A DNA stretch of 64,000 bases from Eledone cirrhosa. Lineage: Eukaryota. Shown piece by piece: positions 5,998 through 64,000 of the stretch (the first letter of the stretch is position 1; each line of letters begins with the position of its first letter). A program made the position numbers and the translations under genes. Location of the stretch: positions 15,376,001 through 15,440,000 of the forward strand of contig OZ024751.1 in the NCBI GenBank assembly GCA_964016885.1, in the 5' to 3' direction. Under the pieces are notes generated by a model that was not told where the DNA came from, did no database searches, and worked only from the letters and a program-made list of their open reading frames with translations.

Positions 5998-6074
5998 ATA
6001 TATTTATATATATATATATATATATATATGATAAAGAACACAAGAGCGTCTACAACATCAAAAGATTTTTATTG

Positions 6075-6120: not shown

Positions 6121-6196
6121 TATAAAAGGGGTTTGATTGGTGTTATATATATATATATGAAAAATGGTGTGCTGCATTGTTGCAAATGGGATACAT

Positions 6197-37732: not shown

Positions 37733-39761
37733 GTAAGACTAATTCTTCTTTTCTTCGCCCACTTATTCCTCAGAGGGTCGTGGGGCAGAGACCTCAAACA
37801 CTCCTTCCAGCGGGTCCTGTCAGAAGCAACCATCTCCAACTGATCCGGCTGGATGCCCAAGCGTGACCAGCAAGCTCGTGGATGTTATCCAACCATCTTG
37901 CCCCAAGACTAATTAAAAAAAAAAATTGTATTATTTCCAAAAGGTGGTGGATTGGCAGAATTGGTAGAGCATCGGATAAAATACAATTGCTGTATTTGTT
38001 CTGGATCTTTACATTCTGAATTCAATTCCCACCAGGATCAACTTAGACTTCCATCTTTCTGGGGTTGGTAAAATATAGTACCAGTTAAATACTGAGCTGA
38101 TTTGATCAATATTGCCCTCCTAAATTTGCTGGCTTTGTGCCTAAATTAGAAATTATTTTTTATAATTTCTGGTTTCTTTTTGTTACCCAATGTCTTTTTG
38201 AAAATAGAGTGAAGTAATTTGAGTCCCTGGCTGAGCTGGCTCCGACTGACCAAACTTGGAATGGGCCCCTGTCACGCGTTGTGGACCCCACCACTTGATT
38301 TCATAACGTTGGTTTAGTTTTTAGTCTGTATTGAGAAGTGGGAGTGGATAGAGGAGTGTGAAGTTACCAACTTTACCTTTAGCTCCATTGATTAAAATTG
38401 CTTTAGAAACTTTATCACCCCAAGCTCCATAGGAAGCAAACGGAACTAAAGATGACGATTAGGATAATGATGAATGATTACCTCCCTTACACTCCTTTTT
38501 ATTTTCATCATTATAAAATCTATTTTCCATGCTTGCATGGTTTAGAAAGCTGCCATGTGCTGAGGCCAAATTGGTCAGGAGATTAGGGATCTTGCTCATA
38601 TGCTTTGTTTTGGCTTGGTTTCTATGATTGGATGCTCTTCCTAACGCCAACCACATTTCAGCTTGTATTTGAAGCATGGTTTCTATGGCTGAATGAATGC
38701 TCATCTTAACACCAACTTCTTTACAGCATGTACTGGAAACATTTTATTGTGGCACTAGCACTACCAACTTATATTGTGAACTAGGTGCTCTTGTTATGGC
38801 ACCATCACAAATATTAAGGTCCTACCGAGACTCATCTTTCAATCACTGGATTCAGAGTGCTAACTATTACACCATAGAACCTTTTTATTGTTTAGAAATA
38901 TTTATAAATTAATGATTTTCTTTTCTTCGATTCAGTATGGGTGTAATTTCAGTTACATAGCTGCATACATGATCCTGTAACTCCTGGGGAAGTCATAGGG
39001 GCGTTGTATTGATATACAAGGTTTCTAGGGCATTTTAAAACTTGGAAGAGCACATCTCTATTCAGGTCTGAATACAGTATATTTCTTCCAGGGGAAATTA
39101 AAGAGTGAGAGAATGGAAGTGAGGAAGAGATATAGAGGAAGAATCGATGATGATGAATCAACCCCAGTACTTGACTGGTACTTTTTTTATCGACCTCGAT
39201 TGGATGAAAGGTAAAGTTGACCTCGGTGGGATTTAAACTCAGAGCATAGAATTGAAACAAATACCATAAAGCATTCTATCAGACCTTCTAACGACTCCAC
39301 TAATTTGCCACCCAGTTACGTATATACTCATGTATAAGCCACACCTTTTTTCAGAAATAATAATCACTTAAAGAAAAGCAATCTATATTATTAATCATTG
39401 ATTAGTAATGTTCTCAGTGTGTTTATTCCTGATTTAGCAACTAAACTAAAATCATGTAGGGTTGAAAATAATCCTTTAGTGCTGCTGAGGGCATAACAAA
39501 CACTCGAGTGCTTGTGCTGTGATAAAATGTACCCTGTATACTCTGTAAAGTAGTAGCAAATAAACTAAGACCATGTAGTGTTGAGAGAGCCACTTTAGTC
39601 TTGTTGAGAACATAACCACACTTCTAGTGCTGGTGCTATGTTAAAAAGCTTCCAGTACACTCTGTAAAGTGGTTGGCATTAGGAAGGATATCCAGGCATA
39701 GAAACCAAGCCAAAAATGATTTAGACAACTTAACCCATCCAGTATTAAATTGTGACAACCT

Positions 39762-40090
39762 ATGGAGGCACATGGCTTAGTGGTTAGAGCATTGGCCTTG
39801 CAATCGAAAGGTTGTGAGTTCAATTCTCAGACCGGGTGATGTGTTGTTTCCTTGAGCAAGACACTTTATTTCACATTGCTCCAGTTTACTCAGCTGTAGA
39901 AATGAGATGATAGGGACTGGGTTCCCTATTATTCCACTGCAAAGTGGACGTGTAGGTGCCACGGCAAAAAAGCACCCAGCACTCACTGTAAATGAGGTTG
40001 GTGTTAGGAAGGGCATCCAGCTATAGAAATTAAGCCAGAATCAGTTCCCGTCCCACCCTTGCAAGCAGGGAAAAGCGGACGTAAAATGAA
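39762..40090 (+). mobile_element. SINE family B, full length (inverted copy at 42701-43043)
   Basis: tRNA head, central body, RTE-type tail. Confidence 0.9.
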
Positions 40091-40463
40091 ATGAATGAAA
40101 TGAATGAATATATATCCAATCCATCCATACCGGCATGGAAAGCAAATGTGAAATGATGATAATAATGATGATTTCTAATGTTAATATCAGTAATACACTG
40201 GGGCTCATTAAATTCATCTCTATTCTCACAACTATGAATTTATGACTGTATGGATGTCAAAAAAATATTTGTCTCAATGTTAATAATGATGATGATGCAT
40301 GTGAGTGTATATATATATATATATATATACATGTGTGTGTGTTTATATACGTCCAAACCCATGCAAGCGTGGAAGATGGATGTTAAACGATGATGATGAT
40401 GTGTATATATATATATAAATGATATAACAGGAATTTTATCTGTATTTCATCATTTTCTTTCAG

Positions 40464-40583
40464 CAGAAGACAGCACTGGAAGTTGGTTGTGGTGTTGGCA
40501 ACTTTTTATTTCCCCTGTTACAAGAAACCAGTTTGTTCTTCTATGCTTGTGACTTTTCAAAACGAGCTGTAGAATTTGTTAAG
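40464..40583 (+). CDS. METTL6: METTL6 coding exon 2
   Basis: [40 protein letters not shown] (SAM motif I); tttcag/cag acceptor, donor gtaaag. Confidence 0.95.
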
Positions 40584-41864
40584 GTAAAGTTTAGGATTAT
40601 TATTTTTTTTTATCAACCATCTCTTCTCTAACAAATTTCTTGCCTTGTGCCGGTGGATTGGCAGTATCGGTAGAGAGTCGGATGCTCTGCTTTGCAGCAT
40701 AGTTACGTCCCTTTACGGACTGAGTTCAAATCCCGCCGAGGTTAACTTTACCTTTCATCCTTACGGGGTTGATAAAATAAAGTACCAGTAATGCACTGGG
40801 ATAATTGCTGGCCTTGTGCTAAAAGTAGAAACAATTAATACTGGGGTGGTAGATTGACAGTATCTGTAGAGTGTAGGACACCATGCTGCGTGGCATAGAA
40901 TTACGGCCCTTTATGTTCTGAGTTCAAATCCTGCTGATGTTAGTCCTGCCTTTCATCATTACAGGGTCGATGAAATAAAGTACCAGTAATGCACTGGGGT
41001 CGATTTAATTAGCTTTCCCCTCTTCCCAAATTGCTGGCCAAAATTGAAAATCATAGTGTAAAACATTTAGTTAGGCTACACATGCATACATATACACACA
41101 TACATATATACAGGCTGGATTGGTTACCAAAACAAAAAGCATCCAATCAGCACTCAGTCCACTCTGTAATGTAGTTGTGCTGGTGACAAAAAGCACCCAG
41201 TCCACCCCGGAAGGTGGTTGTGCTGTTGACATGAGTAAAAAGCACCCAGATCACCTTGTAAGGTGGTCATGCTGTTGACATCACCCAGTCTGCCCTGTAA
41301 GGTGATTATGTTGGTGTCATGACAAAAACCACCAGTCCTCCATGTAAGGTAGTTGTGCTGGTGCCATGAAAAAAAGCACCCAGTTCACCCTGTAAGGTGG
41401 TTGGCATTTGGAAGGACCTCCAGTCATAGAAATCCAACCAAAGATTTAGCATACAATCAAGACATGACCATCTAACTAGCCAGGCCTCTACATAATAACC
41501 TGCCTCACCTATGGAAAACATGTTAATCTTTGATGATCTATATGATTAATTAATTGAGCATCATCATCATCATCATCGTTTAATGTTCATCTTCCATGCT
41601 AGCATGGGTTGGACGGTTTTGTCCCACTTGAGGCAAGATTGGTCGGGAGACCATGTCTCGCTCATACAGAACTGTTTCTGGCAGGTTTTCTACGGCTGGA
41701 TGCCCTTCCTAACACCAACCACATTTACAGTGTGGACTGGGAGCCTTTTTACTGTGTCTCCTGCACGACCACTTTATAGTGTGGACTGAGTGTTTTTTGT
41801 TGTCACCAGCACAACTACCTTATTAATTCATGTATCATTTGTATTATTCTGTTGTTCCTTTCAG

Positions 41865-42035
41865 CAAAATGAACTTTATGATGAGAAGAGATGTAAAGTG
41901 TTTGAATGTGATTTAACTAAAGATGATTTGGTGGCCAACATTCCAGCCCAGTCTGTTGATATCGTCTCATTAATCTTTGTCTTATCAGCAATCCATCCTG
42001 ATAAGATGCTTGAGTGTTTACAGAACATAAGAAAG
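41865..42035 (+). CDS. METTL6: METTL6 coding exon 3
   Basis: QNELYDEKRCKVFECDLTKDDLVANIPAQSVDIVSLIFVLSAIHPDKMLECLQNIRK; canonical AG/GT. Confidence 0.95.
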
Positions 42036-43438
42036 GTAATACAAAATTCTTTTTTGTGTAGTAGTAGTGGTGCTGGTAATAGTGAATGAGGTGATGTTAA
42101 TAACTCTTTAGCATTTGCATTACTCTATATTTACTATTGTAATTTTGTGCTAAAGGCTTTACCCCACATAATTATCTTGCATAATATCGAATCTGAGATT
42201 TTGATATTATTTATTTTGAGAACAATACTTTAATGCTGGTATGAGTGGACAGTTATGGCCGGTTTGAACAGAAAGAAGTGAGAGAATGCTGGCCGGTTTA
42301 AATGCTAAAGAGTTAATATTATTGTTGTTGTTGTTACTGGTTATGTAGCCCAAAATGTTAGACCTGTCGTTCCAACAATGAGTGTTCTAGTTTTTCAAAC
42401 ATTGGAACAGCCAGTTCGTGAAATTAACCTGTAAGTGTCAGAGTATTTTGCAGGCACATGCACTGTTAGTGTAGTTCTTAGGGAAATTCAGTTTGACACA
42501 GTTTGTGAAAAAGCTGTGAAGTGAATGGAATTAGGAAGCATACCCAGCTGTAGAAACCACGCCATAATGGAATGTATGAGCAAGACATTTATTTGACTTG
42601 TCTGTCTAGCTTCAGTGTGACAACCTAGCTAACTTACGCAAGTATAGAAAATAGATGTAAAACGGTGATGATGTTAATATATTATATATAATGTATATAT
42701 CATCATCATCATCATCATCATTTTATGTCCGCTTTTCCCTGCTTGCAAGGGTGGGACGGGAACTGATTCTGGCTTGATTTCTACAGCTGGATGCCCTTCC
42801 TAACACCAACCTCATTTACAGTGAGTGCTGAGTGCTTTTTTCCGTGGCACCTACACGACCACTTTGCCGTGGAATGATAGGGACCCCAGTCCCTATCACC
42901 TCATTTCTACAGCTGAGTAAACTGGAGCAATGTGAAATAAAGTGTCTTGCTCAAGGAAACAACACATCACCCGGTCTGAGAATTGAACTCACAACCTATC
43001 GATTGCAAGGCCAATGCTCTAACCACTAAGCCATGTGCCTCCATCACCATCATCATTTTACATCCCCTGTTCCATGCTTTCATGGGTTGGACGTGTCTTT
43101 CTCAGTTACTATGTTCTCTGAGCACCCTTCTTCACTGCTAATTATATCACTTATGTAGCAGAAGCCATCAACCACTTCTATAGGTCCTTCTTGGGATTGG
43201 AGAAGGTTTATATCAGCGGGGTGGCATTGATGGGAGTGGGGAGGGTCATACCACCCTAGGAGAGGAAGTGTTGGGTCATGGAGGTGATCTAGCAGAGTGT
43301 GAGTTGAGTCCGGTTGTATATTGTCAGGTGTGCCTAGCATTCTATGTTGGCATGGGTTGGACCAAGAACTAGGATGTAGGTGTAAATATAAAACTTCTGA
43401 TTGACTTGTAACCTTCTGTGTCTGTCTGTATATCCTAG

Positions 43439-43580
43439 GTAATCAAACCAGGTGGTTGTCTTCTCTTCCGTGATTATGGTCTCTATGACCATGCCATGTT
43501 ACGGTTTGCACCTGGTCATAAGTTGGCAGAAAACTTCTATGTACGGCAAGATGGTACCAGAGCTTATTATTTCTCGACAG
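43439..43580 (+). CDS. METTL6: METTL6 coding exon 4
   Basis: [47 protein letters not shown]; donor cag/gtaagt, phase 1. Confidence 0.95.
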
Positions 43581-44560
43581 GTAAGTTATTATGTATTAGT
43601 ATTTTATAGTGTTGTTATAGATAAGACTATAGTCTTTTTAAATCATCCCTCCATCAAATGTGAAGCATCATTCATTTTGCCTTTTGCATATATGCACCTC
43701 ACCACACCGGCATACTCATACACAATAGTGCCAATCCATTGTCGAATTAATAGTTGCTCATCTGCAAAGACACTGGTGTTCAAGACGCCAAAGTCATCTA
43801 ATTAAACTGATGGTTGTCGCATGAGCTGCTGTTTACTGTGAGAAACAGGATTTCTATTGAAGCTTACTCCTCTGGATTCAACCTGTTCTGCTAGATTATC
43901 CTATGATTGACATATCAGAGACACTTCGTGTAGGATGTGGCTTTTCACCACTCGGGTATATAGTATATGGTAGATATATGATATAGATATATAAACTATA
44001 ATACTACATAGCTATATTATATTCTAGAAACTATACTACATATAGTGCTGGATTTAACTATAATCTAAATAAGCTATAGCTGCACGCCCTTGGGAGTCTC
44101 ATTTTAAATAATATATTTTTATAAGTTTTTATTCTTTTATACTAAATCATCAAAAATTAGGGCCTCACATTTCATATAGCTTAGAGCCGCAGTTGGTGAA
44201 AGTCCGGCCCTGAATATATAGCTATATTATATTATAAGATATAACATATAATATTATTTAGCTATATTATATTATTGGTATAACCTACTATAGTCTATTG
44301 CTATAATATATAAAGTCTGTCTTACGGTTTGTTAGGTCGGTGTTTATTTATCCCGGTTTCATGGCGTGAAGCGATTGAGAGTACATGACTTCCTGGACAG
44401 GACGCTAGTCCATTGCAGTGTTAAACCCCCAGCTATTACTGGTACTCAACATGAAATGAAGTGTTTTGCTCCAGAACACAACATGCAATCCAGCCCAGGA
44501 ATCGAACCCACGACATTATGATCATAAGTCCAACACCCTTACCACTAGGCCATGAACCTC

Positions 44561-44598
<38 letters not shown>

Positions 44599-45424
44599 AT
44601 ATAATATATAGCTATACTATATTTTAGTATATAGTTGTAGTATGATGGTTGTCATCATTTAACATCCACACTTTATCTACAATGCATAAAAAAAAGCAAC
44701 CAGTAGCATTTATATCCTGCATAAACAATACGCCTCATATCAGTGTTTTGCTGATGCTGTGCAGTACACACCACACAGTATGGATTAGCCATGTGAAGGG
44801 CATCTGGCCATAGGAACTTTACTTTGTCAAATGTCATGTTTATATATGTACATTATTTTCAGACACTCAAGAAGGTTATCAACTATATTTGTTTGTAACT
44901 GAGTTAATTTTCTATGTACAGACTTGAAGTTTGTCAGTAGGTGTTTAAGTATATATGATTTAGAGTTATGTATTTTTACCTGATATTGTTGTTAAATTTG
45001 ACTTTTATTTGCAGCTAAGTAAAATTAATTAACAGGTGTAAAAGAAATGACTTTATGGATAAACAAAAAATATAAAAATTAAACTTTGTCTTATCTGTTA
45101 GTTATGTTACAAAAATTAGCCACAAATGATCCAAATGTTGACTTCACACAATTTTACCCTGTTTACGAACAGGTGAATTAATTAAAATGCAGGTATAATC
45201 ATTACAAGGTTTTAGTTTTTCTCTATATTTCATGCAAATATTTTCATTGAAAAGAAAGTATAAAAACCGTTTACCTGTCAATATACTATTGGCAATGTAC
45301 TCTTACACAATATACAGGTGTGACATACAGCAAATCATTACATATTTCTGGGTTTTGCATATAATTTGAGTTCAAATAATAATAATTTATTTTTGACAAC
45401 ATAATTAATATTGTTAGGTAATAT

Positions 45425-46900
45425 TTCTGTCATAAAATTGGCCAAACCAACCTTTACATAATGGCACTTTACAAAAGTAACACTTTAAAAAAGTAACACA
45501 TAAAAGATGTTTCAATTTGGTAACCTTTAGCAGTTCTTTTCTTTTGCAAAGAACACATTTTGCAAACTTTTCTTGCATCCATTAATTTTTCCTATTTTAT
45601 GAAAATCAATATTTTCTTTATTTACATCTACTTTAGTTAGTTTTGATTTTCTCCCAACTGTGTGTTTGCAGGAAGTGTACCCTCACGTAACTGTGATACA
45701 ACGTCCACATGAAATTTCCTTTGTTTGTGGCAGATCCTTGTGGCTTTTAGTGAATAAAACAAGAATTCACAATTGTTAAATTCACTAAAAACTACAAAAT
45801 ATCTCCACCATTTCTTTCAAGGACGTCCAACTGGGTAATAGGCACACTACTGATTGGATTTGTTGATCTCACCCATGTATTTATTATATGAAATATTTGC
45901 TAGGGGTTTACGTTCAGTCCCAACACCTGGTAGACAGGAATAACATTTGCTGTTTGTCCCTGTATGATGTGGCTAGCATGTTGCTTTTTTTGCACTTGGA
46001 GAATGTCCCCCCTTTTTTTTAAAATTTTGTGCATTTTAATTCTTGGGGATAGCCGTTTGCGATAGCCCATAATTGTACTGCAAGTGTACGTGTTTACGAG
46101 GGTAAGATGCTCTGCCAGAAGCTCTGAAGAAAAAATAATGATTGAAATAGACATGTCTGTGTTGTAAGTGGAAAGGTTCAGTTGGAGACCACACAATCCA
46201 TTTTGTCTCCATTAATGTTTTTTTTCTGTGTACACATCAAAGTTTGTACATTAAGCTGTGTCCATTTCACAGAGCTCCCACACCTTGATACCCCATTTGG
46301 GAGGTTAAGCTGGCATATATTGTCAGAAATGTACCCTACCCATATAGCCAATCATCGCTTCAACAACACAGATTTTTTCCAGGTATATACACAGTTTTAA
46401 ATTTCTCCGATAGTAAATTGAGCCTTGAGCGGACTTTGTAATAGAAGAACATAATTTAGTTCATTCCTTCTGGGGACATTGGAAATATCAACTAGATGCA
46501 AATATTGGTATATTTTCAAAAACCAGGTTTTAGGGCATAGTGCTTGATATATAAGGGTCACCATAACTTATTTCTTGGCTTCATTAAATCTAGAGTTTTG
46601 AAAATTATTTGATACTGAACATTATATTTATGGTAAAAAATGCTCAAATTTCTAGAGCATGTCAATTGCGATAATAGATCGGGTTTTACTCGATTACAAA
46701 TAGTTTGTTGAGCATATCAATTTGTCTCTTCTGCCACAGCTTTGCAGAAAGTCTGTGGCAAAACAAAAAGAAATAATCCAGTGGTTGAGAATCCAGTGTG
46801 GACAAGTTTTTAAACTGAAATCAGGAATATGTATTGCATCATGGAAATCTTCACTTTCATTGTTGGATGAAAATTGAGAAATATATATATACAGTGTTCC
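45425..46900 (-). pseudogene. Decayed piggyBac (PGBD4-like) transposase in the last METTL6 intron
   Basis: Collinear motifs across frameshifts: AEETN*YAQQ, QYLHLVD, YIPGKNLCVVEAMIGYMGRVHF*QYMPA*PPKWGIKVWELCE, TYTCSTIMGYRK, YNKYMGEINKSNQ..KKWWRY, C-terminal CKMC..ETSFMC..CKVPLC. Confidence 0.9.
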
Positions 46901-47515
46901 TGTTACGTTCGTGAAATTTTCCATAGAGACCTAACTAATAATTGTTCGTGGAAACCACTGCATATTCGTGAAAACCACTGCATATTCGTGAAATTATAAA
47001 TATCTTCTGCAATTTTTTAATGGCTTGTTCTTTTTCATGGCAATATATATTTTTTTTACACCTTTTAACGCTATATTATTAATAACAATATACCGTTTTT
47101 GCCAGCCTATGTCTTACGTTATGTAATGATGTTTATAGGCATTTTTATGGACCACGTCCAATATTGGTGGTTTTTCACTCTTCATGGGAGCGCTAGGAAT
47201 GTAATCCCCACGAATACCGGGGGACAACTGTATTCGATTCATTCAAAGACAAATTGCTCTTTTCTTTTTTTCCTTCTTCATTTTGAAAATGATCACGAGT
47301 GAAACCTTTTAAGAAGCCATATTGATATATACAAAAAAAATCTTTCTTCAGACATTAAACCGTCACACGTTATTATAAGTTTCACTATATTTACTATCGT
47401 ATATTCGTGGTAAAGGATTTATTTCACATAATCTCAAATCTACAAGGTTTTGATTGCGTTATTGTTTATTTTTAGAACGATATATTAACAAGTGTAAGGA
47501 GCTGGTTATGGCTGG

Positions 47516-47696
47516 ATTGAATAGAAAGAATTTTGGCCAGTTTGAATAGAAAGAATTTTGGCCAGTTTGAATAGAAAGAATTTTGGCCAGTTTGAATAGA
47601 AAGAATTTTGGCCAGTTTGAATAGAAAGAATTTTGGCCAGTTTGAATAGAAAGAATTTTGGCCGGTTTGAATAGAAAGAATTTGGCCGGTTTGAAT
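47516..47696. repeat. 25-bp unit x ~7 expanded inside a piggyBac-type MITE
   Basis: tttgaatagaaagaattttggccag. Confidence 0.93.
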
Positions 47697-48698
47697 GCTA
47701 AAGGGTTAAAAAGTCTCATGCAAACAATGCTAGCATAGAAAATATAAAAACAATGCTGAAGCTGGTAGTGTTGGTGGTGATTGGCAGAATCGGTAGAGCG
47801 TTGGAAACCATGCTTTGCAGCCTAGAGTTATGTCCTTTTATGTTCTGAGTTCAAATCCCTCCAGGGTTAGCTTTGCCTTTCATCCTTATGGGTCGATAAA
47901 ATAAAGTACCAGTAATGCACTGGGGTTGATTTAATCGACTTTCCCCTCTCCCCCAAATTGCTGGCCTTGTGCCTGTAGTAGAAATCATTCAAATCCCGTC
48001 GAGGTTAACTTTGCCTTTCATCCTTACGGGGTCGATAAAATAAAGTACCAGTAATGTACTGGGATAATTGCTGGCCTCGTACCAAAAGTAGAAACTATTA
48101 TTATTATTATTATTGGTAGAGCATTGGACACCATGCTTTACAGCATAAAGTTATGGCTCTTTACGTTCTGAGCTCAAATCTCGCTGAGGTTAACTTTGCC
48201 TTTCATCCTTATGGGGTTGATAAAATAAAGTACCAGTCACGCACTGGGGTCGATTTAATCAGAAACCATTATTATGGTGGATTGGCAGTATCAGTAGAGG
48301 ATCAGACAACATGCTTTACAGCATATAATTATGTCCCTTTACGGTCTGTTCAAATCCTGTTGAGGTTAGCTTTGCTTTTCATCCTTAGGGGCTTGTTAAA
48401 TTACTAGGGTCGATTTAATTGATTTTCCCTTTCCCACAAGTTGTTGGCCTTGGCGCTTAACCCTTTAGCATACGCATTGCTTTATATATACTATATTTTC
48501 ATGGTAAACGCTTTACCTCGCATAATTATCTCACATAATATCGAATCTATGAGATTTTGAAAGTATTTATTTTAAGAACAATACCGTAACATCAGTTTGA
48601 ACGACCAGTTACAGCCAATTTCAACAGAAAGAGGTAGAGAATTCTGGCCGGTTTGAACATTAAAGGGTTAAAGTAGAAACAATTATTATTATTATTAC

Positions 48699-49343
48699 TT
48701 ATATGCTTTCCAGCATAGTTACGTCCCTTTACGATCTGAGTTCAAATCCCGCCGTGGTTGACTTTGCCTTTCATCCTTACGGGGTCGATAAAATAAAGTA
48801 CCAGTAATGCACTGTGTAATTGCTGGCCTTGTGCCTAAAGTAGAAACAATTATTATTACTTATATACTTTCCAGCATAGTTACGTCCCTTTACGATCTGA
48901 GTTCAAATCCCGCCGAGCTAGACTTTGCCTTTCATGTTTACGGGGTCGATAAAATAAAGTACCAGTAATGCACTGTGTAATTGCTGGCCTTGTGCCTAAA
49001 GTAGAAACAATTATTATTACTTATATGCTTTCCAGCATAATTACGTCCCTTTACGATCTGAGTTCAAATCCCGCCGAGGTTGACTTTGCCTTTCATCCTT
49101 ACGGGGTCGATAAAATAAAGTACCAGTAATGTACTGTTTAATTGCTGGCCTTGTGCCTAAAGTAGAAACAATTATTATTACTTATATACTTTCCAGTATA
49201 GTTACGTCCCTTTACGATCTGAGTTCAAATCCCGCCGAGGTTGACTTTGCCTTTCATCCTTACGGGGTCGATAAAATAAAGTACCAGTAATGTACTGGGT
49301 AATTACTGGCCTTGTGCCTAAAGTAGAAACAATTATTATTACT
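48699..49343 (+). repeat. Tandem array of four 161-bp headless SINE-A units
   Basis: Units start at 48699, 48860, 49021 and 49182. Confidence 0.95.
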
Positions 49344-49409
49344 TAAAGTATCCAACTATAGTAAACACAATCTGCAGTTTTTTTTTTATTCATTCTTTCT
49401 TTCTTTCAG

Positions 49410-49552
49410 ATTATACTGAATATTTACTGCGTGATGCAGGTTATGACATCTGTCAACTTCACTATGTAAAACGGGAGACAGTCAACAAGAAAGAAGGACT
49501 TTGTGTACCCCGTATATTTATACAGGGGAAGTTCTCTGTGGCAACATCGTGA
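49410..49552 (+). CDS. METTL6: METTL6 coding exon 5 (last); full protein ~273 aa
   Basis: (D)YTEYLLRDAGYDICQLHYVKRETVNKKEGLCVPRIFIQGKFSVATS*; acceptor tttcag, phase matches exon 4. Confidence 0.95.
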
Positions 49553-49646
49553 AGCCCTGTGTGTGTTTGTCTGTATATGTATCATCATCTTCATCATTGT
49601 CATTTTTATATCTGTTTAAAAAAAAACGCTGATGATGATGATGATG

Positions 49647-49680
<34 letters not shown>

Positions 49681-49682
49681 TA

Positions 49683-52447
49683 TGTGTATGGAAGTGCAAT
49701 TGTACAATCTAAGCCACAAGCAGGTTCGAAAACCAACGGTAGCAATGAAAATGTATTGAAGATAACTGAAGATATTCTAGCTCTATTGTTTGCATAGAGC
49801 ACTCTGTTTCTTTTATCTATTTGAAGGAATCATTCAACACTAATCATACAGCACCTCATGAGGAATGATTGATGCAATGTCTTGTCTTTCATACCAAGAT
49901 TGGCATCTTTTAGCCCGGCAAGTTGAGCACCCTAAAATTACAAGGATATAAACCAACACAAGATGAATTTATATGAGCCCGATTATTCCACACACATAAT
50001 ATACCCACACCAACCATCACCACTTACACCACACTGCTGAGAGAGAAAGCAGGAAATGTGAGTAGACAAATATACCCACACCAACCATCACCACTTACAC
50101 CACACTGCTGAAAGAGAAAGCAGGAAATGTGAGCAGAGAAATATACCCACACCAGCGAACAACATTTATAACAAACTGCTGAGAGAGAAAGCAGGAAATG
50201 TGTGCAGACTGAGATGGACAGCACTACTTTTCAAAGAAGTGTTAGCTACGACCCACCACTGACCATTTTAATATCAGGTCAAGTCTGTTTCCTCCTAGAG
50301 ATAGACAACTAGCACCATTGGAAGTGGACTTGTTACACACAATTAATATAACATTCTGTGAGTACCATAACAATTTCCAAGCTAAACTTTCTCATGACAT
50401 TAACAAATTTAAATCTTCTAAACATATTTTTGTCTTCTCTGATGAAACAAAAAACTTATACTGAGTAGATACACTAATAGAATCAACTATTACTTAATAC
50501 TAACGAATATCAGAAAGCTAAACTAACCACCTATAATAATATTAACAATGATGTTAAACATTTAAATATAGATAAAAGAACGGAAAGCTGAGCCAAACGT
50601 AGTTCTTATATCACTTTGAAGGATCATAAAAATAAATTTAATAATAGGCCTAGTTGTAGATTAATAAACCCAACTAGAACTGAGATAGGACTAGCTAGTA
50701 AGAAGATACTAAGAGATATAAATAAACGTACTAACAGTAAGGCCAGCCAATTACAGTGGATTAACACATCCGTAATATCTTGGTTTAACAAATTCCTGTT
50801 AAAAATAGAGCTAGATTCAGACAGTTTGACATCATAGACTTCTACCATTCTATTACTCTTGCACTATTAGATTGAGCTTTACAATTTTCCTGCAACTCAG
50901 CCTGATCACTGACCGAGAAATATAATAGATGTAATTATGCATACCAGAAAAATGCCACCTGGGTTAAAAAATCAAACCCAGAGGTTCCTTTCGACATCTT
51001 GATGGTAGATGTCTGTGATTTGGTTGGATTATGTATCCTCCATACCCTCAAAGAGAAATTTCCAGACCATACCATTGGCCTCTATCGTGATGATGGCCTG
51101 GTTGTCTCCTATAACAATGGCCATTCCCTAGATAAGTTGTGTAAGGACCTAATACAGACCTAATGGTAGACACTACCTTAACTAATGCAAATTTCTTAGA
51201 CGTTAATTTAGATTTAGTCACAGGTACCTATAGGCCCTACCATAAATCCCATGAAAAATTAAGATATTTCAACAGAGGGCCTTGCCACCCTCCCAATAGT
51301 ACATAAAAACCTGGTTCTTAACATTAGTCGTAGGATCTCAAATTATTTTCTTTAAGGAAATATGTAAGGCTGCCCCATACTAAAATAGATTAGTGATCGT
51401 AGTTTCAAGGATAGGATTACATATATACTAAAAAGTACCAACCAAAATAAAAATAGGAATATCATCTAGTTCACACCACCCTACTCCTTAGCAGTGAAGA
51501 TTAACATAGGTAGAAAGCTCTTACAACTAATAGATAGGCACTTCCCCCTTTAGCATTGGTATATTTAATTGTCACTTAATGATAGTTAACTACTTTTGTG
51601 GTCCATCAATGAAGTCAAAAAGAACACCACAGGACAACCCAGGATGCTCATGTAGGAAAAATATAACTTAAGATTAGTAGTGTATGAAGCCATGATTATA
51701 GCAAATGGAAACGGCCAATCGGCTGCAAATCAATGATAAGTGGGCATGACACAAGACCTCTTTAAACAGTGGTACTTCTTGCATATGGCATCATTTAAGC
51801 ACCAACATCTGAGAAAACCAATGGCAATGGCCACTCAAGTATGGGAGCTTAAAGACTATACAAGATAGAATGGAGCATCTAGGAGAAAACCAAGTCCTAC
51901 ATTAAACGAACAAAATGGTGTTCACTTTATATTAGTGATAAATCCAGGATATTACCCGAACAGTAAAACTGGGGTGTTCCGAAAATGCCCACATATGAAC
52001 ACATATCTGCTTGCAGCATCAGCTAATTATATCACAAATCTACAGCCCCACCAAAATAGGTATAGTTACATATAAACACGTTTTGAGAACCAACCCTGAT
52101 ATGTTTACAATAAACTTAATAAGCAATATCACAGTAATATTACAAATATACAACTACCAGGAAAAGTATAATTGCATACACAAACTTATACTATCTTGCA
52201 TGCACACCTTAATAGAAACTTAATATGCACAACATTAGCAAGAGTTATTCCCCATGAATTAGGAAAAGCAAAATTATGTCATGATTAACCCCCTTGCAAC
52301 AAACACAATCTCATAAATAACGCCAGCCATCTTTCTTTTATAGTTGCCTGAAGGAAAATGACGCTTGTGGAAGTGCGACCATACAGTCTAAGCCACATGC
52401 AGGACTGGGAACCAATGGTAACAATGAAAATGTATTGAAGATAACTA
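49683..52447 (+). mobile_element. Decayed full-length Penelope-like retroelement (RT plus GIY-YIG-like C-terminus) with direct pseudo-LTRs
   Basis: TLKDHKNKFNNRPSCRLINPTRTEIG, FDIIDFY, GLYRDDGL, NFLDVNLDL, HPP, FTPPYS, VVYEA..GMT..VWELKD. ~85-bp direct repeats at 49683-49767 and 52363-52447; the right one carries TTGC CTGAAGG..GGAAC CAATG GTA (mutated hammerhead). Confidence 0.88.
49998..50205. repeat. ~70-bp unit x3 within the PLE 5' region
   Basis: atatacccacaccaaccatcaccacttacaccacactgctgagagagaaagcaggaaatgtgag. Confidence 0.88.
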
Positions 52448-52924: not shown

Positions 52925-53360
52925 TCTAGGGCGGGTAAAATTCCCGAGATCCATGGACGAGTTCTCTCCAACGGTCTCTGACCCTCACCATCGCTGCCAT
53001 GTGCTGCGTCTCCAATAGACCAGTGTCTGTCCTTAGGGTATCAACATACGTTAACCTTGGTCTTCCTCTTCCAGTGTGTCCATGTAGGGGCTCCTACAGG
53101 AGCACTGAATGCAATGTCAACTCTGGATGTCGGTGAGCATGTCCAGCTAACCTCAGTCTCCTCTGTGTCACTTTTGAGCTGACTTTTGGGAGGCTCCCAT
53201 ATAGCTCTGAGTTTTTCATCCTCAGTGTATACTGATTAATGTTCAGAGCCATCCTCAGCATTCTCGTGTAGCACCTATCCACCATCTGAGTGAGTTTCTT
53301 GGTCAGTGTCCAAGTCTCAGACCCGTACAGCAGCACAGACTCCACTACAGCAATGAAGAG
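52925..53360 (-). mobile_element. RTE-like LINE 3' fragment (related piece ~58290-58430)
   Basis: VESVLLYGSETWTLT..YTRMLRMALNI..RRLRLAGHAHRH..RGRPRLTYVD. Confidence 0.82.
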
Positions 53361-53364
53361 GCGG

Positions 53365-54185
53365 ATAGTAAAGTTTTCCTAGCTGTTATTATTATGTCTA
53401 CTTCTCTTCTAGTGAGGCTTGATCTGTTCATGGCTGAGATCAGTGCCTTGTTAAGGATGATTGGGGATATAGATGCGTAGTAGTTCGTAATGTCCAATTG
53501 GACTAATCGAACATTCGACTTAGTTTCAATGGCACAAAACCAGTCTATTACCTCCTTTGTACAAGACCATAGGCTGAGTTTAGTTCTAATCTTAAAGTTC
53601 AGGTAAGATTCGGTCAATGATTGATTTGCTAAGTCTACCAAGGTCCGATTTGGAGGGGTCTATGAGCCTGACCGGTAGTTTTGACTGGAAGTCCGGTTTA
53701 TGGTCTTTAATGGATATTCTCAGTGTCCTAGGGTTGTAAGGAAAGGTCCTGTCGTCAATACTCAGTTCGGTCATTATTGATTTCGCCTGCTTATTTATGT
53801 GTGGTAGGTTTTCTCGTGTTGATGTTTTGTATATTTTAGAGATTTCGTTTGTAATGCATTTGTTGTAGGTTTTGTACTCTAAATTATATAGGTTTCCAGT
53901 TTTATCCGCTGGTACAATAATCCCAGTGCTATTCTTGATCCGTTTTAAGGTAGAGGAGAGTCCAAGCAGGAATGCACTTCTGTCAGGGTTTCGCGGTGGT
54001 TTCCTGAATCTAATTTTCCGGATCATGGTAATGATCCTGCTCTCAAATTCCTCAAGGAGTGGGTTGTGCGGTGGGTTTTTCGTCGATTTGAAAAGTCTTT
54101 TTATGTGGTTGGTGGGATTGTTAATTGATCCAGGGGCCCTCCTGTTGTTGTAGTGGTAGGCCCTCCAACGGATCCTCCTGATGAT
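53365..54185 (-). mobile_element. Penelope-like element RT, N-terminal half (one frameshift)
   Basis: RRIRWRA, VPADKTGNLY, ISIKDHKPDF..PVRLIDPSKSDLGRLSK, LWSCTKEVIDWF, LDITNYYASIS; homologous to but divergent from the 49.7-52.4 kb element. Confidence 0.88.
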
Positions 54186-54348
54186 TTATCATCATCATCA
54201 TTTTACGACCGCTTTTCCCTTCTTGCAAGGATGGGACGGGAACTGATTCTGGCTGATTTCTACAGCTGGATGCCCTTCCTAACACCAACCTCATTTACAG
54301 TGAGTGCTGAAATTACATGAATCAAAGTTCTGTTCAAACCATTTATTA

Positions 54349-54393
54349 GCCTACAATTGTTTCGTCCAAACCGAGGTTTGGAGTCTTCGGAGC
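54349..54393 (-). ncRNA. Minimal hammerhead motif with U4C core variant
   Basis: Minus: GCU CCGAAGA C UCCAAAC CUCG GUUUGGA C GAAAC AAUU GUA GGC uAAUAAA. Confidence 0.7.
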
Positions 54394-55569
54394 AATTTTT
54401 CAATGATTGTTTACATACATGACCTCCTTTCCAACACAAGAGACATACAGAAACATATGTATATATCGATGCACAGTGGGGTGACATCCATTATAATATT
54501 TTAGCATGGCAATTTACATTCAAAAATTAAAACAAAATTAAAGTTAAAATACAACATCGGCAGTTTACGAAATAATGCAAGAGGGAAGTTTGAAGTAGTT
54601 AGTGTATGCAATAGTTACACGTGGGGCATGCACGTGTGTCTTATTTATATAAGATTATAGTACGGCAAGGTGTTATATGCAATACAAGCACTTTAAGCGG
54701 GTAATCAAGAGTATTATGGGGGTTGTATTGGTGAAGTATTTTTTATGTATGATAAAGAAGCTTGTGGGCAGAGAAATATTAAAAATGAGAAGCATAATAA
54801 TGTTATGGTTTTTGTATACACCACCATTTTCACAATCCAGGAGACGTAATATATAGATTATATGTCCTTCATATAATTAACGATGATTCAGTATTGGATG
54901 CTTGATGTATTGGTTAGATTATTACAGCTTGTTCTTTAATCCAATTTTATAGAGCAGGTTGTTTTTGTTGTGAGAATTTACATCGTTTTATTTTCCGGAA
55001 GTATGTGTGATTAAGGGGAGGTAACTAGCTGATTTCTATAACTAAATTTATTATTCCAATGTACATTAAACGGTGTTCCAATTGAGTCCCTTACATATAT
55101 GGTTATAAACAGTTTTTAAATTTAAGTATCCTATCTTTAAATTACAGTCTACTCTATCAAGAAGTACTAATATCCATATTAGGATGATTACCCTCTATCA
55201 TAGAGTGCCACAACTGAAAATTCCATATGAAGAGTCAGATCTCCAAATCAATGATCTTTGTAAATGTAGTCTACCCACAGAACCTGGCAGGGTTTTATTA
55301 TTAGAACCACGTCTATATACAACCCCTGGTAAGCTCTGGGTCAGTGCATGTCTGATTGCACGGCAAAGTTAAATATCTCTAGGGTAGACCAGAGAGCAAT
55401 TCTCACTTACAATGTCATTAATCTGTCTATCAAGTCATACATGTATGTATAACTCGTATACCACTTGTACATAATTCATTGTACTCAACATAAAGGTTAT
55501 ATAGCTCTTTTATGTTAATAAATTAATCTTCAATTTATCCATACATACAACAACATTTGCACAAATAAT

Positions 55570-56565
55570 TCAGTGTTTAAAGTTGAATGTGCATAGTAAT
55601 CTTATTAATAGTATTTGTTCGTCAGTGAAGGGTTTGTATTGGATGACTCTGTTTGGTGGTTGGTATACGTCTGGGTTTTTCCAAGTGAAGTCTGTTTCAG
55701 ATTTCCACCTGTAGACCTATGTGTAAGCTGTTAGATTGTGTCTGTTTGTTTGGTCGTTGAAGAATTCCTCATTAAACTTCTTTTTGGTTTCTTCATCCAT
55801 TTCTCCTGGCAGTGGTACGTGTGTTCGTAGTAGCATGTATGAAGTCTATTTGTTCAGAAAGTGGCCGCTGTTGTATTTATAGGCATTTGTAGCGTCCTTG
55901 ACATCTATTGTTCTTGCGTGTTGCACGTTTTTAACTTGGTGACCATGGAAATCTCTACCCGAATCAGTTACACAATTGACGTCATATCTAAAAGTCTTGT
56001 CTGTACATGTATTTGATGATGCAAGATTATTTAACGTTTGTATGATTTGTGGGTGATTCAGTTGATCGTAATCTACTTCAAGTGTAAGAAAATATTCTAT
56101 TTCGAATTGAAACATGAGACTTTGTTGGCTATTATTGCCGTTAATTTTCATAGGCACGTTTATTAACACCATCTCTGGCGGATCCTCTGACGTGTACAAA
56201 ACATTATTTATGAGTGTTCTGTCTGCCACGGTGTAAATGCCACCAGATGTTTCGTAATCACCAGCTACGATTGTAGATTCTCTAATACATTGATAATTCA
56301 GCCCGTAGTCATTGTGTTCTGCAAGGTTTATATCTTCCATGTATCCATATCTTGTAATTCTTCTATTGTTTTTATAGTCTAACCATTGTCCTCCCATTTC
56401 GAGGTTAGTCCCGAAGAATGGTGCTGAGGCTAGATTTATGCATCCATCCATTTTTACAAGTGATCCCGATCCCTGATGATGATTTTACTTGACTGTAAAA
56501 CTCTTCCTACCTTTCATCTTGTCTAGGGCTGAAAATGATCTTCTCCCCTGAAGTTACTGATAAGC
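55570..56565 (-). pseudogene. Decayed ORF, candidate endogenous parvovirus/densovirus capsid fragment
   Basis: The 201-aa ORF extends in frame both ways through isolated stops (~330 codons); N/T/Y/G/D-rich; motifs LDKMKGRKSFTVK*NHH and PPEMVLINVPMKINGNNSQQSLMFQFEIEYFLTLEV recall jelly-roll strands of small parvoviral VPs (from memory only). Confidence 0.45.
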
Positions 56566-56879
56566 CATTACTTCCGGTTTGTACCCGCATTTGCATAAAC
56601 AAGATTGATTGCACGCCCTTCCCCCCCTTTCCTTTCATTAATTTCATTATTGATTTTTTCACTTCCGTGCATTCCCTGCTTATCAGTTAGTTTTACTTTA
56701 AGATACAATCCTGTTCTATAATGGCTGATTGCACCAATTTTCATAGCTGGCCATTTCTTTCTATTGGCGTTCATTTTTGCTACGGCCTATTTTTGGGGCA
56801 TGGCTTATATTAAATCCATCCTGAAATATAGTGCTACGGCTTATTTTCGGGGGAGGCTTATAATGGTGGAAACACAGTA
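56566..56879 (+). mobile_element. Tigger/pogo-type DNA transposon end
   Basis: Repeated gctacggcttattttcgggg motifs ending ggaaacacagTA. Confidence 0.6.
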
Positions 56880-57129
56880 TATATATATATATACATATAC
56901 ATATACAAGTGGACTGTTGAAGTATACAGACGTGTTTTCATTTCTCTCTCCCAAAGTCAGTAGCAAGCTACACAGCTACAAAGTCTAACTGACCGTATAT
57001 ATATAATATATATATATATATATTTGTAACCATATGTTCACCTACAAACTCATAACCAAAGGCTCACACACTTAAGAAAGAATATACATATATCTAAAAA
57101 CCAAAAAAAAAGCATGACAACTAACCAAC

Positions 57130-58200: not shown

Positions 58201-58744
58201 TATGCTGTTGTTACTCCAGTGCACCAAATCCCCACATCGTGTATATATCATCATCATTTTATGTCCGCTTTTCCCTGCTTGCAAAGGTGGGACTATTCAG
58301 CACAGCATCTCTCCACTTGTCACGGTCCTTCGTCATCTCCACCGTGAGCTTCTGAGGTCTGCTCTCACCACCTCCGCCCATGTTTTTCGTGGTCTTCCTC
58401 TACTACGTCTTCCTATAGGGAGCTTATAGATCGGACAACACACGCTGCCTTTTCGTGGGGGTAAGTTTTGTATTCTGAAACATCAAAATACAACAAAATT
58501 TTTGCTCACTAGACTCGGGGGAATATCCTGACAGAAGTGGAAGTTACAAATATTTTCATATATTTTCCCATAGCGATTTTTATTTACATTTTACATTTTA
58601 TATAACAGCAGTGGCTGTTAGGGCAAGACATGTTTTCTTGGGCTCTGCTAGAGTCAGCAGCAACACACAACCATGTGTTGCTAGACACAAGGGGAAAGGG
58701 AAAAAAAAAAAAATTATGAGACCAATAGAGATATGTACATTTAT

Positions 58745-59130
58745 ATCTAAATATTGTTATTATCATTTACAGTCCCTCTGTGTTTAATGTAAAAACATGT
58801 TCATTAGTATATGTGTTGTTATTTCTGTTTACATTCTACATACATATATATATCAATGCTTGCGTGGACCTCTCAAAATTCGTTAGATTTTCTAATTGGA
58901 TTTTCACCCCGAAACTGGATACCAACCCTGAGTACATCTAAATATTGTTATTATCATTTACAGATGTCCCTCTGTGTTTAATGTAAAAACATGTTCATTA
59001 GTATATGTGTTGTTATTTCTGTTTACATTCTACATACATATATATATCAATGCTTACGTGGACCTCTCAAAATTCGTTGGATTTTCTAATTGGATTTTTA
59101 CCCCGAAACTGGATACCAACCCTGAGTACA
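58745..59130. repeat. Tandem duplication of ~191 bp
   Basis: Units start at 58745 and 58936, near-identical. Confidence 0.93.
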
Positions 59131-59399
59131 CCTGAACTTCCACCAGGAAATCTTTCATATCATTGAAATTTTCTTTGCTTCTTATATATTATATATACTT
59201 GTCCGCCATTGCAAGGGGCCATAAATTCAAAATTTTGAAGAGAGAGGAAAGGAGACAAGTGAACTATGAACTTGTACATCTCACTGACCTCCGCCACCAC
59301 AATAACAATAACGTCTACACTCGCTCCCCACCATCACCACAGTACTCATTACTCTATCTAAGGTGGCTGACCTGTTCCCTGGTGACATACTGCTGACTC

Positions 59400-61747: not shown

Positions 61748-64000
61748 TCATCATCATCATCACCGTTTTACGTCCGTTCTTCCACGCTAGCATGGGTTAG
61801 ACGGGTTGTCCTGTTGTGGGCAGTGTCTGGTCGGCTGACCATGCCTTGCTCATACAGGAACTGTATTGGCTTGATTTCTGCAGCTCGATGCCCTTCCTAA
61901 CACCAACCTCATTTACAGTGAGTGCTGGGTGCTTTTTCGTGGCGCCTACACGTCCACTTTACAGTGTGGGCTGGGTGCTTTTTTGCCGTAGCACCTCCAC
62001 GACCACCTTGCGGTGGGGGCATATTGTCTATATGCTTCAGCTTGTACCCATGGGAGGTCGGGTACTCTGTATTACTGCGTGACGCCAGAAGTCAGGGTCG
62101 TGTGTCAAATCCTTTGAGAGGTGTAATTGGGTAAGGTCGGCTTTTATCACCTCATCTTGGGTCTCCCCACTCCGCGGTTTCCATCAACTTCTAGTGCTCT
62201 GCACCTTTTTATGCAGCTGTCATCCTTCATACGCATCACATGTCCATACCAGCGCAACCGCCTCTCCTGCACACAGCATTTGATTCCTCTTATGCTCAGT
62301 CTCTCTCTCAATTCATTTATGCTTTGTCGTTCACGTATATTACTGTTACACATCCATCGGAGCATGCAGGCTTCGTTTCTCTCTAATCTACGTAAGTCTT
62401 CCACCTTCAGCGCCCAGGTCTCACTACCATGCAACATTGCTGTTCGGATACACGCATCATACAGTCTGCCTTTCATTCTGAGGGAGAAGCCTTTTGCAGC
62501 TAGCAGTGGTAGTAGTTCCCTAAACTTCTTCCATCCCGTTCTTACCCTAGTTATTGTACTTTCTGAACACCCACCCCCGCTGCTAATTCGGTCACCTAGG
62601 TAGCAGAAGCTGTCTACTGTTTCTACAGAGCCCTCCCAGAGATTGGTGGTACTTGTTTCCTGTGGCTGTTTCCTGCTTGCTGTCTCATCACAGCTGCTGC
62701 ATGTGAAGCCTACATTCTTAATTAAGCTTCCTGAGATCCCGCTACATCTCTTGTGTACCCATTGTTTGCATTTGGGGCAGAGAATGGAGTTCCTACCTAC
62801 ACCTTTCCTACATACTGAGCAAGGCCATTTCCCTGAGGGGATCTGGGTTCTGTTTTCTCGTCTACTTACAAGGACCTTAGTTTTTGTCATGTTGACTTTG
62901 AGACCCTTTCTTTCTAGTCCCTGCTTCCAAGTTTGGAATTTATTCTCTAGTTCTACCATAGATTCAGCTATGAGTGCGAGGTCATCAGCATACAGGAGTT
63001 CCCATGGGCATCCGGTCTTAAACTCCTCCGTTATTGCCTGCAGGACTATGATGAACAGGAGGGGGCTAAGAACAGAGCCCTGGTGGACCCCAACCTGTAC
63101 GCTAAATTCTTTGCTATACTCATTGCTAATCCTAACTTTGCTGACTGCTCCCCTATACATGGCTTGTACCGCTTTCACAAGCCATTCATCTACTCCTAGT
63201 TTTCTAAGAGCCCACCAGATTACAGCACGTGGAACTCTGTCAAAGGCTTTCTCAAGGTCAACAAATGCCAAGTAGAGTGGCTTACTTTTAGCTAGGTACT
63301 TTTCCTGTAATTGCCTCTCAAGGAAGAGGGCATCAGTGGTGCCTCTTCCTGGTACAAACCCAAATTGCATCTCGTCTATTTCCACCCGGTCCCTAATCAA
63401 CTGTGCTATAACTCTTTCTGTTACTTTCATGACCTGGTCCATCAACTTTATACCTCTATAGTTTCCTCTATCTAGTGCATCGCCTTTACCTTTGTAGCAG
63501 TTGACAATGATGCTACTGCACCAATCTTTTGGCATGACACCTTCTAGTATTACCTGGTTAACAATACGTGTGGTTATAGTGTGACCTACAGACCCAGATG
63601 CCTTCAGCATCTCGGCAGCTATACCCGATGGACCGGTTGTCTTCCCCATCTTCATATCTTTGATTGCCTTACTTACTACGTTGCTGCTGACTTGTACTGC
63701 TGACCCCTCTATAGGGTCTACTTGGGGTAGGGTCTCTTCTTCCCATGCATTCTCCTCATTTAGTAATCTATCATAATGACTCTTCCATGCATCTTTCTTC
63801 TCAGCACTTGTGAGGGCAAGCTCACCTTTATCATTCCGGATACACTTCCCTCCAATGACATCACAACTATCTCTGACACACTGCCTCACAATCTTGAATA
63901 CCTCCTGTTTCTGGTCCTGACGTTGCAAAACATGCTTGAATTTTCTATCCTCTGCTTCCCTCCTAGCTAAGTATACTTGTCGCCTAGCTTCTCTCTTGGT
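61748..64000 (-). mobile_element. Young RTE LINE, 3' 2.25 kb (continues off the right edge)
   Basis: Open RT frame plus 3' UTR ending in (gat)n. Confidence 0.95.
62147..64000 (-). CDS. RTE reverse transcriptase with inserted PHD-like zinc finger (partial)
   Basis: NYRGIKL, QFGFVPGRGTTDA, FVDLEKAFDRVP, GVHQGSVLSPLLF, LLYADDLAL, CSVC..CPKCKQWVHKRC..CSSC; frame open from 64000. Confidence 0.95.
   Translation of the reverse strand, partial: TKREARRQVYLARREAEDRKFKHVLQRQDQKQEVFKIVRQCVRDSCDVIGGKCIRNDKGELALTSAEKKDAWKSHYDRLLNEENAWEEETLPQVDPIEGSAVQVSSNVVSKAIKDMKMGKTTGPSGIAAEMLKASGSVGHTITTRIVNQVILEGVMPKDWCSSIIVNCYKGKGDALDRGNYRGIKLMDQVMKVTERVIAQLIRDRVEIDEMQFGFVPGRGTTDALFLERQLQEKYLAKSKPLYLAFVDLEKAFDRVPRAVIWWALRKLGVDEWLVKAVQAMYRGAVSKVRISNEYSKEFSVQVGVHQGSVLSPLLFIIVLQAITEEFKTGCPWELLYADDLALIAESMVELENKFQTWKQGLERKGLKVNMTKTKVLVSRRENRTQIPSGKWPCSVCRKGVGRNSILCPKCKQWVHKRCSGISGSLIKNVGFTCSSCDETASRKQPQETSTTNLWEGSVETVDSFCYLGDRISSGGGCSESTITRVRTGWKKFRELLPLLAAKGFSLRMKGRLYDACIRTAMLHGSETWALKVEDLRRLERNEACMLRWMCNSNIRERQSINELRERLSIRGIKCCVQERRLRWYGHVMRMKDDSCIKRCRALEVDGNRGVGRPKMR

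Follow-up and report, generated by a model that had tools for sequence, protein, structure and literature searches.

The window analysed here is a 64,000-nt stretch of the Eledone cirrhosa genome (contig OZ024751.1, positions 15,376,001 to 15,440,000). On its minus strand, positions 56568–55570 form a frame of 332 codons from ATG to stop, which carries four internal stops, at codons 5, 28, 241 and 284, without any shift of frame. The longest stop-free run in this frame is 212 codons, and the remaining five frames of 55570–56568 contain 20–25 stops each. When the bases were shuffled, only one of 5000 shuffles had a frame, among all six, with no more than five stops. The plus-strand reading of 55570..56565 is rich in stops. 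A frame of about 330 codons with a few in-frame stops had been reported in a preliminary description of this DNA, and the peptides quoted there are found in it. The frame is not one gene. It consists of parts of two viral genes together with codons 1–34, and the features of the locus are listed in Table 1.

Table 1. Features at and around the viral locus (window coordinates).
Feature	Position	Strand	Evidence
Pogo/Tigger-like transposon end with subterminal direct repeat	56775..56879	−	terminal motif 56879–56868 beside a TA run
Promoter-like stretch: 2 ETS, 1 octamer, 2 CCAAT, 1 GC-box	56569..56775	−	motif count
Codons 1–34 of the frame, including the stops at codons 5 and 28; a decayed transposase start is the most likely origin	56467..56568	−	
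Capsid part: C-terminal third, ~206 codons, stop-free, natural stop 55848–55846	55846..56466	−	phmmer, profile, ends of relatives
Spacer, 45 nt, from capsid stop to ATG at 55800	55801..55845	−	sequence scan of 55780–55900
HUH-nuclease-like N-terminus (probable NS1), ~70 codons, one internal stop 55719–55717	55570..55800	−	P0014 match, tblastn
High-copy interspersed repeat, ~1.3 kb, ending in a minimal type I hammerhead-like motif (~54390–54345)	54310..55590	−	
Short interspersed repeat, many copies in the window	54187..54309	.	blastn, 93–96% over ~120 nt

The locus is an endogenous viral element that holds about 0.9 kb of a PLA2-type parvovirus-like genome in the germ line, and there is hardly any doubt that it is a parvovirus-like viral fossil. 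The viral piece is intergenic. It locates about 6 kb beyond the last exon of a gene that we take to be METTL6-like, between the pogo/Tigger-like 5' end and the truncated hammerhead-ended retroelement.

In one sample, short-read contigs match the window over 55555–56233 and 56206–56539 without any difference, so the stops in the frame are not assembly errors, and this sample may be the assembly's own source. A second sample under the same organism label gave low-depth cover over 55815–56458. Contig depth, which is a rough guide only, was about 10–36 over 55654–56458 and about 80–170 over 56459–56941; downstream it was about 1,500 to 88,000, and within the repeat at 54310–55590 it climbs from about 3,000 to 88,000 toward 54366. 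The locus had been called non-repetitive, which is correct for about 55600–56460 and fails on both sides, where the depth rises. In each of two runs of the same sample, one contig joins 56014 to 56414 and skips 399 nt. They represent another copy, or another allele, of the viral element that has lost an internal segment.

The capsid part and its relatives

The window protein was searched with phmmer against 1.84 billion proteins. Fifteen matches were obtained and 14 of them fall within codons ~35–240, the best being P0003, a protein of 608 aa (E 1.2e-21). Consistently, a profile built from seven relatives matches only 56448–55849 in the whole window (E 1.4e-37). The window capsid shares 29–35% identity with the long relatives over about 205 residues. 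Pfam, PDB sequences, PHROGs and IMG/VR gave no match to the window protein, and a word-indexed search of 5.8 billion proteins gave none either. Of the 17 relatives in alignment A2, 10 have their last residue in the column of window codon 240; another four terminate before this column, and the remaining three have different ends close to it. Because these ten relatives end there, the stop at codon 241 is the natural end of the capsid and not a sign of decay. The stops had all been read as interruptions of a single capsid gene of about 330 aa; this reading fails at codon 241, since the capsid similarity is confined to codons ~35–240 and the 3' part belongs to a second gene.

Two extensions of the capsid were tried and rejected. 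The upstream DNA was tested as further capsid, for which 228 and 130 of 400 shuffles scored as well, and codons 1–40 were tested as VP residues 325–399, for which 75 of 400 shuffles scored as well.

With P0003 as the query, further relatives were found: four are full-length, at 606–621 aa, and four are partial. PF08398 (PLA2) is present in all six scanned relatives that keep the N-terminus (P0003, P0032–P0035 and P0039), and this region is absent from the window. The sequences of single relatives gave no Pfam capsid match and no PDB sequence match. When a profile of seven relatives was compared with the PDB, VP1 was matched at E 0.0077, mainly via PLA2. The contigs bearing intact capsids, those of P0003 and P0032–P0034 among them, reach 3.8–4.5 kb, and P0003 and alignment A3 gave no loci in IMG/VR or in JGI metagenomes. 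In an unrooted tree of 15 rows, made without the frameshifted and very short rows (P0011 among them), the window sequence stands on its own long branch and most of the forks are open.

P0011 (CAE1233600.1) from the cuttlefish Sepia (Acanthosepion) pharaonis is the only named protein among the relatives looked up, and it is annotated "uncharacterized"; the others are Logan proteins without a name. It has 36% identity over window aa 43–171 and is far closer to the P0036 type than to the window sequence. Since it sits on a 1.5-Mb S. pharaonis genomic contig, it is probably another endogenous copy. P0032 and P0040–P0045 are seven near-identical intact capsids of 606 aa. Six of their seven contigs are 3,790–4,078 nt long, and five of these six are 4,065–4,078 nt. 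This cluster may represent a circulating virus and not a fossil. In P0038, about 210 internal residues are absent in frame and the PLA2-side half is joined to the C-terminal part, which suggests that internally deleted capsid genes are recurrent in the lineage.

A comparison of folds with parvoviral capsids had been proposed in the preliminary description. For the window protein it was uninformative, as the single-sequence model reached a pLDDT of only 27.7; for P0003 it led to AAV capsids at low confidence. In the atlas, aa 130–608 of P0003 matched the Denso_VP4 and VP1_2 clusters (0.95 and 0.94; 210 of 256 features at 0.95). The AlphaFold model of P0003, calculated from an 18-sequence alignment, was poor (pLDDT 37; TM ~0.2). 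With this model, all nine Foldseek matches in the PDB at E ≤ 0.001 were AAV capsids, a signal to which PLA2 may contribute. In BFVD, 48 rows were obtained at E ≤ 0.001; the named rows were parvoviral or densoviral and two had no name. The top six rows of VIA were also parvoviral capsids, and the best one, PARV4, gave a Z of 8.4 that is near the tool's stated noise level (rmsd 5.4, 202 aligned). Structural-alignment identity between the P0003 model and parvoviral capsids was 6–18%. The two motifs originally assigned to C-terminal jelly-roll strands fall on predicted strands 502–506 and 518–534 of a full-length relative. Among the predicted barrel strands these two come last, and they lie within the stretch that was aligned with the jelly rolls of parvoviruses, in agreement with the original assignment. 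With moderate confidence, P0003 is predicted to have the single jelly-roll capsid of Parvoviridae, which has eight strands and large loops.

The phmmer matches, the PLA2-bearing relatives and the viral fold and feature matches support what had been proposed, an endogenous parvovirus-like capsid of an unnamed lineage. A cellular pseudogene or a transposon ORF, for which the transposons flanking both sides could speak, has a negligible probability: none of the 15 phmmer matches has a cellular or transposon Pfam family above the cut-off, as the proposal of a capsid implied, and the best relative matches viral capsids in features and fold. A cellular or transposon protein at codons 35–240 is thus contradicted by the Pfam, feature and fold results.

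The HUH-like second gene

The fifteenth phmmer match, P0014, covers window codons ~259–327 (E 6.4e-05 in the 1.84 billion proteins) with 40% identity over 63 aa. A cluster mate of P0014 was aligned by tblastn to 55827–55591, beginning 19 nt past the capsid stop. Because the similarity resumes so soon after the stop, both gene ends are intact and no foreign DNA lies between them. The support for this second gene comes from a single cluster of three proteins.

Beyond the part kept in the window, P0014 shows by eye a beta-strand, a Glu, an HUH motif (His-hydrophobic-His) and Tyr-x-x-Lys, an order which presumably resembles that of parvoviral NS1 nucleases. Its atlas neighbours are HUH Rep-like and include CRESS-virus and bacterial sets, with a recognition of 2203 that is below the guide value of 2300. 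P0014 gave no Pfam, PHROG-significant or PDB sequence match and no IMG/VR loci. A search for a longer relative with a helicase, which is a weak test, found none, and P0014 and P0030 both end at 210 aa without a helicase. As the atlas recognition is below the guide and neither Pfam nor the PDB gave a match, codons ~259–327 are rated as likely, by sequence similarity, to be the start of NS1. The earlier statement that no NS1 was visible has to be revised, since these codons match an HUH-like protein.

The ATG at 55800 is in a strong start context, and a weaker ATG is found at 55836. A TATAAA at 55881 lies within the capsid 3' end and is weak evidence in AT-rich DNA. No AATAAA was found between the capsid stop and the ATG at 55800 in a scan of 55780–55900. 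The window retains only the beginning of the HUH-like gene, which is cut off by the downstream repeat, and a helicase family was not found at E ≤ 0.01 in the six frames of 36–64 kb. The plus-strand stretch 55160–55520 was considered as an ambisense second gene and rejected; it gave no Pfam match and is within the high-copy repeat.

It is very unlikely that only the capsid is viral, with codons 242–332 representing either an accessory gene or host or transposon DNA of unrelated origin. The dependence on one cluster and the lack of a family match would allow such a reading. It is opposed by the 40% identity to a protein with HUH-like motifs and by the location of the second part in the single-copy stretch, as the repeat begins only at ~55590.

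Flanking repeats and the state of the element

The viral DNA had been described as cut upstream by a Tigger-like end. Such an end is present, and we take it to belong to the pogo/Tigger family; it lies about 310 nt upstream of the frame's ATG. It carries a 21-nt direct repeat (56778–56798 and 56832–56852), and a matching opposite end was not found in the window. A 16-mer from the transposon end was compared with IMG/VR and hit 18 loci, where the longest blastn match was 23 nt; this was rejected as chance. The promoter-like stretch has six motifs in 210 nt, and none of 304 window tiles reaches six (maximum four; the motif set was chosen post hoc). This stretch probably belongs to the transposon itself.

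Pogo elements (Tigger/Passer) have terminal inverted repeats and a transposase that starts with BrkDBD or CENP-B_N, according to the available part of PMC7386202. Codons 1–34 gave no Pfam match at E up to 10, and codons 1–63 gave none in three frames. A contig of organism B matches 56486–56613 with four differences in 128 (97%). The organism B run has no contig over 55654–56458, a gap in cover that proves nothing. The multi-copy zone ends at ~56460, where the capsid similarity begins. Codons 9–19 in our view resemble the N-termini of pogo transposases, and a transposase start is the somewhat favoured reading of codons 1–34. It is doubtful that codons 1–36 are instead the start of VP1, joined to the C-terminal part when the middle of the gene was deleted, and that the promoter upstream of them is viral. 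Their likeness to the VP1 N-terminus is weak, being equalled by 49 of 3000 shuffles and by 37 of 3042 tiles of the window, and the transposon fits better because of the depth step at ~56460.

On the other side, the hammerhead-like motif at 54390 was identified by its pattern; its stem II has 8 pairs and its core is imperfect. Its folding z is −1.2, and Rfam gave no match to it. Most other copies of the repeat carry the base at 54351 that completes stem I. A twin of minimal type I with a canonical core lies at 6066–6125 (minus strand; 6117) and has similar flanks. No RT or GIY-YIG coding match was found by Pfam in the six frames of 54310–55570, and tblastx gave no match between the repeat and other elements of the window. 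In the part of bioRxiv 10.64898/2026.07.22.740005 that was available, type I hammerheads mark the ends of Penelope-like elements, most insertions of which are 5'-truncated. The downstream repeat is probably Penelope-derived and 5'-truncated. Further copies of the adjacent short repeat are at 16748, 22140, 24783, 40089 and 42708. A long hairpin was not found near the viral locus.

Several other features were observed in the window. Decayed fragments at 53345–54185 (minus) and ~50000–51600 (plus), which from their motifs we take to be Penelope-like reverse transcriptases, gave no Pfam match. A well-preserved LINE reverse transcriptase occupies ~62100–64000 (minus; RVT_1, E 3e-31), an endonuclease remnant lies at ~60.4–60.6 kb (plus), and a piggyBac-like transposase remnant at ~45970–46410 (minus; DDE_Tnp_1_7, E 4.4e-08). 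Positions 58742–59136 hold a tandem duplication of ~200 nt with 96% identity. The exons of the presumed METTL6-like methyltransferase gene span ~37600–49800 (plus), of which the one at ~40.5 kb matches Pfam Methyltransf_12 and the others were placed by eye. Head to head with the start of this gene at ~37.6 kb lies an ORF of ~377 codons from its first Met (34066–35199, minus), which to us reads like LYAR. As it is intronless, it is possibly a retrocopy or a case of intron loss.

The viral element is most likely an inert fossil in its host. With neither the PLA2 arm nor some two thirds of the capsid, the viral piece cannot form a jelly roll; the nuclease active site and the helicase are absent too, and a capsid or nuclease product is impossible. 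Under the transposase reading of codons 1–34, two of the four stops lie upstream of the viral DNA and one is natural. Only one disabling stop then remains in the viral part, which thus looks well preserved. In the complete virus, the capsid protein would assemble into a T=1 shell, with the PLA2 arm serving escape from the endosome, and the HUH protein would start replication of the rolling-hairpin or rolling-circle type by a nick at the origin; for parvoviruses, the T=1 capsid, PLA2-mediated escape and HUH nicking are established, as covered by the available text of PMC13426907. In the host, read-through from the transposon promoter could feed small RNAs.

Integration probably took place by DNA end-joining, with later transposon hits. 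A template switch of a Penelope-type reverse transcriptase is a tentative second route. The viral piece abuts the truncated 5' end of the downstream repeat in the same sense. This same-sense junction fits a template switch, and a later independent insertion of the repeat fits it too.

Gene order and affinities

At this one locus, the end of the capsid gene precedes the start of the HUH-like gene on the same strand, 45 nt apart. Monosense parvoviruses carry the NS cassette upstream of the VP cassette, and this layout is not found here. We lean slightly toward an order, capsid before replicase in a linear genome, that is native to the virus lineage. The lineage would place its capsid cassette ahead of its replicase cassette, and the replicase would be transcribed from a putative promoter inside the capsid 3' end (TATAAA at 55881, start context at 55800). 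The gap between the two genes is typical of an internal gene junction, and neither a hairpin nor a remnant of untranslated sequence is present in it. A 6-mer that resembles the capsid tail occurs at the N-terminus of P0014 and at that of P0031, whose contig is 5.3 kb long; in a test chosen post hoc on these proteins of one cluster, 12 and 25 of 5000 shuffles scored as well. Its position before the P0014 start may be a weak hint at the same adjacency elsewhere. A profile test of the whole tail on P0014 and P0031 was negative (1114 and 895 of 2000 shuffles). No capsid-first monosense parvovirus was found in the openly accessible literature searched, and this lowers the prior for a native order.

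It is rather unlikely that the virus was an ordinary NS-then-VP parvovirus and that the junction comes from a head-to-tail concatemer, a circularised episome or a rearranged defective genome, with loss of the two terminal hairpins and the two untranslated regions either prior to integration or later. AAV and bocavirus are known to form head-to-tail episomes and defective genomes, and copies of the present element do rearrange, since another copy or allele lacks the 399 nt between 56014 and 56414. Endogenous viral elements often bear deletions, as stated in the available part of PMC13426907. Against such a history, both breakpoints must hit a few tens of bases without damage to either the capsid stop or the start of the replicase, the DNA between the two genes is free of hairpin and poly(A) remnants, and the capsid-tail-like 6-mer before P0014 hints weakly at adjacency elsewhere.

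A parvo-like hybrid or circular ssDNA virus, which would combine a PLA2-bearing parvoviral capsid with a Rep of another type on a circular genome, is improbable. The CRESS-virus and bacterial HUH Rep-like sets among the nearest atlas clusters of P0014, the stop of both P0014 and P0030 at 210 aa without a helicase, the nearly equal size of five of the seven P0032-cluster contigs and a 'parvo-like hybrid virus' capsid at BFVD rank 16 for the P0003 model are in line with it. In contrast, the atlas scores of P0014 are weak, and linear genomes also give contigs of equal size. The helicase fragments reported from cephalopods also have parvoviral best matches in the available part of PMC5013282, and they may belong to this lineage.

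The affinity to hamaparvoviruses suggested in the preliminary description did not hold. Hamavirinae (formerly Hamaparvovirinae) and parvoviruses of the penstyl/brevi type likewise have a single jelly-roll capsid, and several of their genera infect aquatic hosts. Their VP1 lacks PLA2, whereas the relatives of the window capsid have PLA2 and are, at 606–621 aa, about twice as long as had been assumed. One hamaparvovirus- or brevidensovirus-like capsid gene of ~330 aa with four disabling stops is therefore highly improbable: the relatives end at codon 240 and the remainder of the frame matches another protein. What it has in its favour is the coincidence of length, a chapparvovirus capsid at VIA rank 5 (Z 7.2) and the IHHNV_capsid sets that are also in the atlas list for P0003 aa 130–608 (0.91–0.93).

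There is a close likeness to VP1 of Parvovirinae and Densovirinae (AAV, bocavirus, PARV4, B19 and densoviruses). The relatives share with it the N-terminal PLA2, long loops between the jelly-roll strands, a Pro-Pro-x-hydrophobic strand that precedes the final strand of the barrel, and contigs of ~4–4.5 kb. They differ in a shorter VP1 (606–621 aa), and the locus differs in having the capsid before the HUH gene. In the available text of PMC13426907, a VP1-borne PLA2, as found in the relatives, is limited to Parvovirinae and Densovirinae, and family membership is based on the SF3 helicase of NS1. Because this helicase is missing here, the element is called parvovirus-like and is placed in no subfamily. 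The lineage of Swazi bat-associated megaparvovirus 1, as far as described in the same source, also has an atypical layout with a PLA2-containing ORF upstream of NS1, and it has endogenous copies. In that lineage, PLA2 is a separate ORF and the capsid follows NS1, whereas in the relatives found here PLA2 and capsid form one protein.

Cephalopod parvoviruses had been called poorly known, which is fair; fragments from Octopus, Sepia and Euprymna have, however, already been tabulated. The available part of François et al. 2016 (PMC5013282) lists a genomic NS of Octopus bimaculoides beside a transposon, a VP transcript of O. vulgaris and NS ESTs of Sepia officinalis and Euprymna scolopes. The paper also places marine mollusc sequences outside the known genera. 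These sequences come from the same host group as the cuttlefish relative, and they include an endogenous copy beside transposons, as here. They are short, mostly helicase fragments without a described genome layout in that part of the paper, and they may belong to the present lineage. No description of this lineage was found in the literature searched. The chances are about even that cephalopods have an as yet unnamed group of parvovirus-like viruses with PLA2, of the rank of a subfamily, in which the capsid comes first (swapped cassettes on a linear genome, or a circular one), and that this group is represented by intact contigs of ~4.1–4.5 kb in public sequencing runs and by fossils in several cephalopod genomes.

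Cephalopods are farmed and serve as laboratory models, and an aquatic-parvovirus review (PMC11357303) has, in its available part, no mention of octopus or cephalopod and no cephalopod parvovirus. Germ-line copies tie virus contigs that are otherwise without a host to a host group. If the gene order is native, it would break the monosense rule, with the early replicase placed away from its position beside the left-end promoter, and both the timing of early and late expression and the shuffling of cassettes in ssDNA virus evolution would become testable. If the order results from rearrangement, the element would be an ordinary yet useful fossil of an undescribed lineage.
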